Shown: in pieces, positions 6,108-7,894 of the stretch
Numbering within the stretch: the first letter of the stretch is position 1
Layout: each line of letters begins with the position of its first letter
DNA from: a virus
Virus genome (UHGV): UHGV-0213869
Strand: one strand, 5' to 3'
DNA length: 10,127 bases
Position numbers and translations under genes: made by a program
The notes under the pieces: model-generated
What the model saw: the letters and a program-made list of their open reading frames with translations, nothing else
The model's database searches: none
Told to the model about the DNA's origin: nothing

Positions 6108-6128
6108 AGGCGGGCAATTCGCCCGCCT
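6108..6128 (-). terminator. Rho-independent terminator hairpin (8-bp GC-rich stem AGGCGGGC/GCCCGCCT, loop AATTC), followed on the minus strand by a U-rich tract
   Basis: Stem 6108-6115 pairs with 6121-6128. The minus-strand sequence just 3' of the stem is TTTCTTTAATCT. The plus-strand side has an A-run before the stem and only a weak T tract after it. Confidence 0.6.
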
Positions 6129-6451
6129 GTCCTGATTTGAACTCACTCATTTTCCGACTGACAATTTACATAGCCCAAAAGTTATCAAATCTGACAGTCT
6201 GCTTTGAGTGAGAAGCAGACATTTACTTAACCGGATAGCAAGAGACTTCATACTACAGCTCATACATCATGGTTGATCCCGGAGTTTTCAGCAATGGAAA
6301 TTGCCCACATGATCGTACCGTAACCACATTAGAAGCAGGTTCACTTTGTGAATTTTGATTGTGTCACCCTATCAGTTTTGAATTTTTATAAAAAATATTC
6401 GCAAATTTGTGAATTATGAGAGACATACGAGCATGGACAACCAATGTTACT

Positions 6452-6481
6452 TTCATACACAATGAAGCAACATGATAAAAA
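6452..6481 (+). promoter_or_regulatory. Putative sigma70 promoter of the cargo gene: -35 TTCATA (6452-6457), 18-bp spacer, extended -10 TGaTAAAAA (6473-6481)
   Basis: By-eye match to the consensus in the AT-rich region about 35 nt upstream of the start codon. Several alternative hexamers exist, so this is weak. Confidence 0.25.
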
Positions 6482-6506
6482 TACACTGACTTTAGTAAGT
6501 AAATTT

Positions 6507-6511
6507 AGGAG
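6507..6511 (+). promoter_or_regulatory. Ribosome-binding site AGGAG of the cargo gene, 6 nt upstream of ATG 6518
   Basis: AGGAGattgcgATG. Confidence 0.7.
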
Positions 6512-6517
6512 ATTGCG

Positions 6518-7852
6518 ATGTTTAGCTTAATCATGGCCGGAGAACCGGACGTTTTTGACCGCTGGCCGTGTATGGACCCTGAGCTTAAAGAAGGCAAGGA
6601 AAGCTTCTCGATGTCCCGCATGCTGGAAGGCACCCCAAGCAATATTTACAGAAAATTAACACCAATAAGACCCGATACCTTAAGAGTACTCGCCAAGCTA
6701 CCGGTGTTGTTCATGACCGAAATTTATACAAAAGATGATGAATATGATACAAACAAGTACATCAGGATCAGGCTTGGGGAAATAAGAAATTTACGTAAAG
6801 ATGGTGGCGATATTTTATTTTCTTTCAAGATTAATCATGATTTTGGAGAAATAACGAATCCCCAAACGACATTATATAAAGAAACCCTAGGACTAGGATC
6901 TTTCGGGTTAAGTCGTACACATTGGGCAGTAAAAAATAAGGATTTGAATATTGTTCTGGAATTACTTGGTTTAAACAAAAAAAATAGCCATCTGAAAGGT
7001 ACAATCAAATTAAAAAAACAAACATACCCAGTAGTCGAGAATATTATAGATTATCTTAATTTCATTAAGAAAAACTTTCGTGATGGTCTCATTACCTTCT
7101 ATCGTGGACACTCTAAAAGCTCATATGAGCTTGTCCCCTCTCTTTACAGAAAAAATCAAAACGGGACGTACAGGCATCTTGCTTCAGAATCTGATTTAGT
7201 ACGTGAAATACTCAGCGCAAGACCAAATGAATTTAAGGAGGATAAATTTACGATTGATAAACTTGTCCGCATGCAGCATTATGGCTTGCCTACAAGACTC
7301 TTAGACATTACATCTAACCCACTGATAGCATTATATTTTGCTTGCTGTTCGAACCCCGATGAAAACGGACAGGTGATTGCGTTTTCAACAAACAGAAAGA
7401 AAATTAAATATTTCGACTCAGACACAGTGAGCTGTATAGCAAACTTATCACTTTTATCTTACGAAGAGTTGGAAAAATTGTCTTCCATTGATGCCAGAAA
7501 AGGTAGTATGGAGTTACCTGAACTCACTGATAAACTTGCAGACCTTATACAGAATGAAAAATCATATTTCAGAAACAGAATAATCCCTGATGACTTAAAG
7601 AAAGTTGTTTTCCTTAAGGCAAAAATAAATAATGAACGCATACAATCTCAGGCAGGAGCTTTTCTTCTGTTCGGACTTGATCCCATTTTACCGGAAACAG
7701 ATGCTGAGTTTCCTCTTAACAGAGTGGAGATAGCGAACAAAAATAAAATTCTGGAAGAGCTGGCACAGCTTAATATATCCGAAAGCACTGTATATCCCAG
7801 CATGGAGAAAACGGCAGCAGAAATTACAAAAAAGTTTTTATCGGTATCATAA
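6518..7852 (+). CDS. Cargo (moron) protein of 444 aa in the Z/fun position between G and FI; central and C-terminal part carries FRG-domain-like motifs; candidate anti-phage defence or abortive-infection protein
   Basis: Long ORF with a strong RBS, convergent to the late operons. GC is about 33-35% against about 55% in flanking tail genes. Motifs FYRGHSKSSYELVPSLYR (about 7097-7150), QHYGLPTRLLDITSNPLIALYFAC (about 7274-7345) and QSQAGAFLLFG (about 7646-7678) resemble the FRG domain family (Pfam PF08867) as I recall it. No search was run. Confidence 0.8.
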   Translation: MFSLIMAGEPDVFDRWPCMDPELKEGKESFSMSRMLEGTPSNIYRKLTPIRPDTLRVLAKLPVLFMTEIYTKDDEYDTNKYIRIRLGEIRNLRKDGGDILFSFKINHDFGEITNPQTTLYKETLGLGSFGLSRTHWAVKNKDLNIVLELLGLNKKNSHLKGTIKLKKQTYPVVENIIDYLNFIKKNFRDGLITFYRGHSKSSYELVPSLYRKNQNGTYRHLASESDLVREILSARPNEFKEDKFTIDKLVRMQHYGLPTRLLDITSNPLIALYFACCSNPDENGQVIAFSTNRKKIKYFDSDTVSCIANLSLLSYEELEKLSSIDARKGSMELPELTDKLADLIQNEKSYFRNRIIPDDLKKVVFLKAKINNERIQSQAGAFLLFGLDPILPETDAEFPLNRVEIANKNKILEELAQLNISESTVYPSMEKTAAEITKKFLSVS

Positions 7853-7878
7853 AGGGATAAACTAAAGGAAACGAAAAC

Positions 7879-7894
7879 TAAGACTGCGCAGTCT
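7879..7894 (-). terminator. Perfect 16-bp palindrome AAGACTGCGCAGTCTT; on the minus strand it is followed by a U-rich tract, so it is a likely terminator for transcripts coming from H-G
   Basis: Minus-strand sequence 3' of the hairpin is AGTTTTCGTTTCCTTTAGTTT. It lies 24 nt after the cargo stop codon and 190 nt after the G stop. Confidence 0.55.

Follow-up and report, generated by a model that had tools for sequence, protein, structure and literature searches.

The interval between the tail genes G and FI is the known Z/fun cargo hot spot of phage P2. We analyzed this interval in the virus genome UHGV-0213869, a stretch of 10,127 nucleotides (hereafter the window), which is the tail region of a P2-like prophage of Escherichia coli with late genes on the minus strand, as indicated by open reading frames (ORFs) and Pfam domains. 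The hot spot of the window holds a cargo gene that converges with G, and an initial annotation had described this gene as bracketed by two hairpins, both oriented to stop late transcription. We consider a different reading probable: the hairpin at 6108-6128 is the terminator of the V-G operon of the phage backbone, the palindrome beyond the 3' end of the cargo gene is a weak element of the cassette, and the cassette is exchanged at a pair of inverted 24-nt sites that resemble repetitive extragenic palindromic (REP) sequences and bacterial interspersed mosaic elements (BIMEs). The cargo is bracketed, but by these two sites, here called L and R, which had gone unnoticed; the pair originally proposed consists of one backbone terminator and one weak palindrome.

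The cargo gene (6518..7852, plus strand) encodes a 444-aa FRG-domain protein (Pfam FRG, E 2.8e-22) that matches the PADLOC candidate anti-phage system PDC-S15 (E 6.7e-99). The strongest inverted repeat of the region, 6188-6223 with 7995-8030 (36 nt, 83% complementary), encloses this gene and contains the two palindromic boundary repeats. Site L, at the left cassette end (6197..6220, plus strand), reads GTCTGCTTT-GAGTGA-GAAGCAGAC from its outer to its inner side and folds with -13.5 kcal/mol; site R, at the right end (7998..8021, minus strand), reads GTCCGCTCT-GTGCCA-AAAGCAGAC in the same outer-to-inner sense. There were two copies of the 24-nt site in the window and two in the 26.7 kb of the prophage, compared with 0.01 expected. 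Homology with the P2 backbone ends at approximately 6219-6224 and restarts at approximately 7995. Further, copies of the segment 6196-8021 are present in many E. coli genomes (99.8% identity) and in phage Tritos (98.4%), and these copies sit in lambdoid (Qin-like) prophages, flanked by a replication-region gene (DUF977) on one side and hokD on the other. At the level of sequence, these comparisons show that the cargo is a discrete 1825-bp cassette ending in two inverted 24-nt palindromes.

The cassette has the properties of a hot-spot cargo or moron, namely a foreign base composition (GC content of 31-42% in the cargo, 50-60% in the backbone), a fixed place in the backbone at which the content varies, and an upstream region of its own. 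This AT-rich upstream region of 297 nt (6221..6517, plus strand) moved with the cassette at 99.8% identity into the lambdoid prophages. It presumably holds the promoter of the cargo gene, and there is a weak sigma-70-like match at 6434-6463. A custom terminator scan detected no convincing terminator for the cargo's own transcript.

The sites follow the consensus GTCYGCTYT, six nucleotides, RRAGCRGAC, and then RTT on the cargo side. In total, 106 different variants of the site and 92 different inner flanks were collected. The layout is arm-spacer-arm (9-6-9; 7-bp perfect arms plus two looser nucleotides) with two spacer classes, which is the arm and spacer arrangement of recombinase sites. We measured conservation over 35 (R) and 33 (L) P2-like loci carrying different cargos. 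The outer flank, outer arm and spacer were 90-100% conserved, the first two bases of the inner arm approximately 45%, and the next seven bases, AGCGGAC, 70-99%. Among the 92 inner flanks, the first base past the inner arm was a purine, the next two bases were T in 89% and 64%, and everything beyond RTT had background composition. The switch from conserved to variable sequence is thus sharp, lies inside the site and occupies the same position across dozens of cargos. Since conservation switches there, the inner arms are shown by the alignments to travel with each cargo, and the outer arm and spacer to stay with the phage backbone. Outside the sites, an FI-side scaffold flanking L (6129..6196, minus strand) is conserved where the hot spot is occupied and missing where it is empty; the same holds in P2-like phages for a G-side scaffold flanking R (8022..8082, minus strand), which is approximately 65-70% similar to the flank of the lambdoid site.

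L and R themselves are not canonical terminators. A U tract after the sites was not conserved in either direction, with a mean of 2.9 T in the first 8 nt of the 92 inner flanks; on the outward side, the tail is UGUCAGAUU in P2-like phages, and in lambdoid phages it is not U-rich. A sigma-54 promoter reading of TGGCAC was rejected as well, since no -12 element is present. No resemblance was seen to the recombination sites dif/cer, loxP and hix/gix, the fim inverted repeats, attC or the P2 att core. The R spacer plus one base, GTGCCAA (8007-8013, minus strand), equals the 7-nt core of the R64 shufflon sfx sites (PMC4176322); kinship with these was rejected, since the arms are unrelated and the shared core is therefore probably a coincidence.

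Two small ORFs of the window, 7974-8180 (minus strand) and 7987-8157 (plus strand), read through site R and contain the peptides VRSVPKADI and, at the start, MSAFGTERT. Similar peptides, such as VRFVPKADI and MSAFG.KRT, are known from numerous hypothetical proteins of Proteobacteria, in keeping with the broad distribution of the palindrome. Small ORFs such as ydfV and that at 7974-8180 are probably mere translations of the repeat and annotation artefacts.

The same sites delimit variable genes in lambdoid prophages. We gathered 80 contigs with the DUF977 protein, and most of them have a GTCCGCTTT GTGCCA site with a constant upstream flank approximately 72 nt past the stop codon of DUF977. At a distance of 1.0 to 3.5 kb follows another site, which has an L-type spacer and a constant downstream flank, and at least 20 different sequences were found in between. 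Overall, the lambdoid cargos enclosed by such sites measured 1.0-3.7 kb. In some of these loci an extra R-type site, 3.7 kb after the first, starts another variable region. Site-to-site identity between P2-like and lambdoid backbones exceeds 99.3% for two cassettes: the 1825-bp FRG cassette and a 1032-bp cassette with the gene of a 269-aa protein. Both keep the R-to-L polarity in both backbones, and none of 62 unique cassettes was inverted between L and R. The breakpoints of the two shared cassettes lie inside the sites, at R between position 8 of the outer arm and the inner arm and at L between the spacer and the outer arm. The outer flank of R is homologous between the P2-like and lambdoid families over approximately 60 nt. 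The alignments thus show that the sites mark the limits between which cassettes vary, and the points at which two of them crossed from one phage family to another.

Cassettes also occurred in tandem arrays, in which one R..L unit is followed by an approximately 18-nt linker and another R..L unit (for example, loci L039, positions 86-1887, and L071, and the Enterobacterales loci L323, L334, L341, L347, L367 and L370). The double junction of L site, linker and R site was present in 756 of 5426 complete E. coli genomes. In E. coli K-12 MG1655, a site pair in the Qin prophage (1645981-1646004 and 1646972-1646995; positions 13982-14005 and 14973-14996 of locus L415) encloses flxA. Its R-type site lies within the annotated ydfV ORF, and its flanks are unlike those of the site between DUF977 and hokD.

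Of the two hairpins in the initial annotation, that at 6108-6128 was correctly placed, with exact coordinates and a minus-strand U tract. In the minus strand it reads AGGCGGGCGAATTGCCCGCCT, then TTTCTTTAAT, and it was the top-ranked match of the terminator scan. Its RNA folds with -20.1 kcal/mol (z -3.5; 1 of 200 shuffles equal or better) into a G+C-rich stem of 8-9 bp with seven G-C pairs. The U tract UUUUCUUUAAU directly follows the stem on the minus strand, and the plus-strand tail, GUCCUGAUUUG, is poorer. Across 30 sequence variants of the hairpin, the run TTTTCTTT of the U tract did not vary. In the late sense, 95% of the stem cells in the alignment were paired; 13 one-sided changes preserved G.U pairs and one compensatory change replaced G-C with A-U. 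Pairing was kept in more variants on the late strand than on the opposite strand. Divergence among the variants was low, and the covariation score was equalled by 25 of 500 shuffles. The late orientation of the hairpin is thus indicated by the U tract together with a modest G.U asymmetry, and its target is almost certainly minus-strand transcription just ahead of the FI promoter, PF.

Comparison with other loci indicated that this hairpin belongs to the backbone and not to the cargo, since homology with other P2-like phages extends from FI to approximately 6219-6224 and spans it. We gathered 80 P2-like viral contigs from IMG/VR with the FI protein, of which 49 cover G to FI. The hairpin was found at a constant distance from FI in all 49, and also in the GenBank phages examined. 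In four viral contigs the hot spot is empty, and the order is the G stop codon, 5-6 nt, the hairpin, the U tract, the PF region and FI; 94 of the 5426 E. coli genomes had this arrangement (at least 80% of a 249-nt probe covered). Empty hot spots thus place the hairpin at the end of a transcription unit, and PF always lies just downstream of it. In a custom scan of approximately 40 loci with different cargos, it was the strongest late-sense terminator candidate in each, at -14 to -21 kcal/mol. Because it directly follows the G stop codon in empty spots, we interpret the element at 6098..6128 (minus strand; stem-loop 6108-6128, U tract 6098-6107) as the ordinary intrinsic terminator of the V-G late operon, predicted from the scan, folding and comparative loci, which is present with or without cargo and is not a cargo-specific insulator. 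The proposal that it halts antisense or read-through transcripts before the FI promoter was thus borne out with respect to its late orientation, its proximity to PF and its invariant U tract, and failed with respect to a role specific to the cargo.

The PF region was placed at 6027..6096 (minus strand) by alignment to the annotated P2 record. Positions obtained in this way put the Ogr/activator site at approximately 6071-6096, approximately 2 nt from the end of the U tract (P2 feature 17555-17583), and the transcription start at approximately 6027-6029 (P2 feature 17626-17628). In the P2 record (NC_001895), a "putative rho-independent terminator for V operon" is likewise annotated between G and PF, and the Ogr-dependent PF lies directly upstream of FI; the Z/fun locus is likewise a hot spot between G and FI, with a conversion or defence gene convergent with G. 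The two phages differ in where the good terminator resides. In P2 it is borne by the cassette, beside the fun(Z) stop codon (-13 kcal/mol, long U run; positions 1140-1167 of locus L009), and the backbone hairpin is degenerate, whereas in the window the situation is reversed. This hints that one good terminator between G and PF suffices. Further, fun(Z) is unrelated to the FRG/PDC-S15 cargo of the window.

The second hairpin of the initial annotation, a palindrome between G and the 3' end of the cargo gene, exists with a U-rich minus-strand tail, one base away from the position given for it (7879-7894). The 16-nt perfect palindrome AAGACTGCGCAGTCTT (7880..7895, minus strand) lies 28 nt past the cargo stop codon and is cassette-borne. 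The tail AGUUUUCGUUUCCUUU follows it on the minus strand, and there is nothing comparable on the plus strand. Its stem, however, is not the stable G+C-rich stem-loop of an intrinsic terminator: it has 6 bp (AAGACU/AGUCUU) with two G-C pairs and folds with -6.9 kcal/mol (z -1.2; 27 of 200 shuffles equal or better), and it was missing from the terminator-scan output of the window. A perfect 16-nt palindrome occurred somewhere in 16% of dinucleotide-shuffled windows and in 0.3% of shuffled 230-nt G-cargo spacers; the sequence is thus mildly non-random, and its stability is not above chance. Another perfect 16-nt palindrome, AAGCTCATATGAGCTT, lies within the cargo coding sequence (7117-7132). The palindrome at 7880-7895 was unchanged in all cassette copies, including the lambdoid ones, some of which differ at nearby positions. 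An element this weak, which moves into lambdoid prophages along with the cassette, is not likely to terminate transcription efficiently, and the claim that it stops the H-G late transcript did not survive the folding and terminator prediction by which it was to be checked.

Between site R and this palindrome, the custom scan detected a weak terminator-like hairpin, GGGAGC...GCUUCC, followed by AGUUUUUG (7939..7967, minus strand; -8.6 kcal/mol), which is also cassette-borne. It may be a chance match, since similar weak matches are frequent (11 observed, 11.2 expected from shuffled sequence). All late-sense candidates in the G-to-cargo spacer, namely site R, the hairpin at 7939-7967 and the palindrome at 7880-7895, are weak, and judging from these folding energies, late transcripts probably continue for the most part antisense across the cargo up to the terminator at 6108-6128. 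A permissive-threshold Rfam search of 5900-8300 returned no family for any hairpin, boundary sites included.

P2 late promoters require Ogr and are silent in the lysogen. Expression of the cargo in the lysogen would thus need only the upstream region 6221-6517, and the argument that hairpin insulation makes it possible is weak in its logic, since there is nothing to insulate against. Further, insulation of a convergent gene is not a general design of this hot spot, since approximately half of its cargos run in the same direction as the late genes.

We examined the distribution of the 24-nt element with an exact-pattern scan. Matches came from many viral-contig contexts and also from the chromosomes of Pantoea, Klebsiella, Citrobacter, Leclercia, Mixta, Enterobacter and Superficieibacter, where the element often formed back-to-back pairs. 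Ordinary genes surround it in Enterobacter bugandensis and Pantoea brenneri, among them those for an MFS transporter, regulators of the AsnC and LysR types, flavodoxin, glyoxalase and RcnB. Several loci per genome were found in alphaproteobacterial metagenome-assembled genomes (MAGs) of Pseudolabrys, Bradyrhizobium and Rhizobium, with identical arms, the spacer G[TGC]GCCA and AAT/ATT flanks; one Pseudolabrys MAG had at least five.

The element looks closest to the REP, BIME and REPIN (REP doublets forming hairpins) repeats and is a candidate member of that class. Like these, it is a short imperfect palindrome of 24-30 nt (the 24-nt sites have arms of 7-9 bp) that lies between genes, both in phages and in the chromosomes of Enterobacter and Pantoea, and it forms inverted pairs with linkers of approximately 18 nt in P2-like loci, Klebsiella, Citrobacter, Enterobacter, Mixta, Pantoea and E. 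coli. Unlike them, it is unrelated in sequence to the canonical E. coli REP, shows no GTAG head and is, in E. coli, of low copy number and confined to prophage hot spots. REPs are known as recombination join-points.

Other systems were similar in part. A phage moron, in the concept of Hendrix and Juhala, is an extra gene with its own promoter and terminator placed between backbone genes. The cargo of the window is likewise one gene of low GC content that brings its own upstream region and lies between two late operons, in a place where the cargo takes either orientation across phages, and it differs in that the unit is bounded by conserved inverted palindromes and not by a promoter-terminator pair. 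Lambdoid phages have "boundary sequences", short conserved sequences beside variable genes for which shuffling by recombination has been proposed. For T4-type phages, Arbiol et al. (2010; PMC2839356) reportedly describe PeSLs, "mobile regulatory cassettes" made of an early promoter and a stem-loop, in which short conserved stem-loop sequences flank variable genes and modular shuffling by recombination is proposed. As described there, PeSLs stay within one phage family, whereas the repeats of the window are promoterless inverted palindromes common to unrelated temperate phages and chromosomes. The sites further share imperfect palindromic arm-spacer-arm structure, cassette arrays and two spacer types fixing orientation with integron attC sites, heterospecific lox/FRT exchange and shufflon sfx sites. 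In contrast to integrons, there is no adjacent integrase and no attI-like site, and each cassette has two inverted sites instead of one attC. The attC consensus ends (RYYYAAC ... GTTRRRY) were not found among the 92 inner flanks, in which only R-T-T was conserved and positions 4-7 were background.

Vassallo et al. (2022; PMC9519451) described the G-FI locus of P2-like phages as a second hot spot for defence genes; it was not treated by Rousset et al. (2022; PMC9122126), who did not mention terminators, hairpins or inverted repeats. We found the boundary repeats described neither in the literature on hot spots, morons and REPs nor by a search with the exact site sequence; older P2 hot-spot papers were outside this coverage, and an earlier description in them is possible.

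In the reading that we favor, the terminator at 6108-6128 would end any transcript arriving on the late strand (read-through from the late genes, antisense RNA of the cargo or, in other phages, the mRNA of a co-oriented cargo) and would leave the expression of FI-D dependent on PF alone. The palindrome at 7880-7895, in the 3' untranslated region of the cassette, and the hairpin at 7939-7967 may give some termination, and most late RNA would probably read across the cargo. The boundary palindromes would most likely provide either short portable homology or targets for a recombinase, and cassettes would be swapped there in fixed polarity, with the exchange carried out by homologous recombination of phage or host or by a site-specific enzyme.

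Several observations weigh against this reading. As to the terminators, the stem at 6108-6128 is equally stable in the plus strand (-22.3 kcal/mol), P2 has a degenerate version of the backbone hairpin (-7.7 kcal/mol), and termination at 6108-6128, like read-through at 7880-7895, is predicted from sequence. Cassette-borne late-sense terminators do exist in this hot spot, as the annotated and well-formed one of P2 between G and the convergent fun(Z) illustrates, and the cassette of the window is without a convincing one; the tandem weak hairpins and U tracts at 7939-7967 and 7880-7895 could add up to real termination. As to the sites, their number in E. coli is low (median 1, maximum 7 places per genome), unlike that of classical REPs. 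Homology-driven and site-specific exchange are indistinguishable here, only the site itself being common to both families. Finally, the hairpins are on average slightly more stable in the strand entering the cassette than in the other strand, and an alternative stem that overlaps R shows weak covariation.

The last two observations bear on a role of the palindromes at the RNA level, which is conceivable. If, like the REP/BIME elements of E. coli, they acted mainly as hairpins that stabilize or attenuate the 3' end of the upstream backbone operon (G, or the lambdoid replication genes), exchange would be a by-product of their conserved sequence; we regard this as possible and not probable. Site R always lies 50-110 nt past the upstream backbone gene and is the first site met by backbone transcription in both families. 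The hairpins of the entering strand are the more stable (-10.8 vs -9.9, -7.6 vs -3.8 and -9.0 vs -7.3 kcal/mol), and in a few phages R and a T-rich tail score as a late-sense terminator (-12.6 and -17.4 kcal/mol). The alternative stem is a 10-nt inverted repeat, TGGCACAGAG with CTCTGTGCCA (8007-8016 with 8039-8048), which connects the upstream flank with the spacer and outer arm of R; it is the preferred late-sense fold in the window, a rival to the R hairpin, and 91% of its positions are paired in the entering strand across P2-like and lambdoid flanks, many as G.U. However, many P2-like variants break its pairs and the covariation comes from few lineages; site R of the window has two C.A mismatches in the late sense and was not formed in the minimum-energy fold; inner and outer arms do not covary; a U tract after the sites is not conserved, as stated above; and an RNA role leaves the need for site L on the far side unexplained.

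The palindromes might instead be core sites of a site-specific recombinase, with the R spacer GTGCCA and the L-type spacer GAGCGA incompatible, so that R would exchange with R and L with L and orientation would be fixed, as it is in engineered recombinase-mediated cassette exchange. The inverted arms around a 6-nt spacer, the sharp switch from backbone to cassette, the fixed polarity, the inner arm and RTT conserved on unrelated cargos, the tandem units recalling cassette arrays, the spacer match to the sfx core and the breaks inside the sites in two independent transfers between families are all consistent with such a mechanism. Short-homology exchange would, however, force the breakpoints into the sites too, only the site being shared between families. 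Nothing obvious in the annotated neighbourhoods linked a recombinase to the sites (no systematic search was made), P2-like and lambdoid phages carry unrelated integrases, the arms are unlike those of sfx, and the spread between chromosomal genes, together with multiple copies in Alphaproteobacteria, suits a REP-like repeat better. A recombinase-site function is doubtful. A bolder form, that GTCYGCTYT-N6-RRAGCRGAC-RTT palindromes are sites of a recombinase or hairpin-binding transposase that is supplied in trans and moves single-gene cassettes, many of them anti-phage candidates, in fixed polarity across P2-like and lambdoid phages and the chromosomal arrays of Enterobacterales, is offered tentatively, as an unlikely case.

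The original insulation model, in which the palindrome at 7880-7895 stops H-G RNA, the hairpin at 6108-6128 stops the rest and both jointly insulate the cargo, is unlikely: the U-rich minus-strand tails of both hairpins, the adjoining second weak hairpin with its U tract, the constancy of the palindrome among cassette copies and the P2 terminator beside fun(Z) speak for it, and the low stability of the palindrome, the chance-level number of weak matches, the presence of the strong hairpin without any cargo and the co-oriented half of the cargos speak against it.

In the remainder of the window, the minus-strand late genes are H, G, FI, FII, E/E', T, U and D. Gene H (8612-9937, minus strand; ORF and Pfam) precedes gene G (8083..8610, minus strand), a tail fibre assembly gene and the last of the V-W-J-I-H-G late operon, which was identified by Pfam Caudo_TAP (E 1.8e-36) and by its annotation as a tail fiber assembly protein in an identical E. 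coli prophage. Gene FI (4813..6003, minus strand), the tail sheath gene and the first of the PF operon, was identified by Pfam sheath domains and the annotation of the identical prophage. Positions 5700-8400 match the prophages of two complete E. coli genomes at 100% identity; that of NZ_CP145671 adjoins yegQ and has ogrK at its end. More than 30 different cargos were found at the same hot-spot position among related loci.

Three segments of the window (1-496, 2914-3241 and 9945-10127) are inverted relative to the otherwise 99.9% identical NZ_CP145671 prophage, with clean junctions; they break gpD, T (the tape-measure gene) and, in its 5' part, H into opposed ORF fragments. They look like misassembly or artificial rearrangement rather than biology; the region studied, 3240-9944, is collinear with that prophage. 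In the same prophage, outside the window (positions 19597-20340 of locus L001), a plus-strand hypothetical gene opposed to the late genes lies between baseplate gene V and a virion morphogenesis gene. This may be a further cargo position; the 24-nt site was not found beside that gene.

The two hairpins that drew attention to this region are in themselves ordinary, comprising a conserved operon terminator and a weak palindrome in a known hot spot, and the interest lies in the boundary palindromes. The same palindromes delimit many cargos in two unrelated families of E. coli prophages, with identical cassettes in both. They provide a simple signature with which cassette ends and new cargo genes can be located in prophages, the flxA locus of Qin in K-12 among them, and a warning to annotators that ORFs such as ydfV or 7974-8180 of the window probably translate a repeat. 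If a trans-acting recombination system were at work, these phages would have an integron-like cassette economy without a linked integrase. The cassette boundaries offer a concrete, testable route by which defence and accessory genes may be shuffled among temperate phages.

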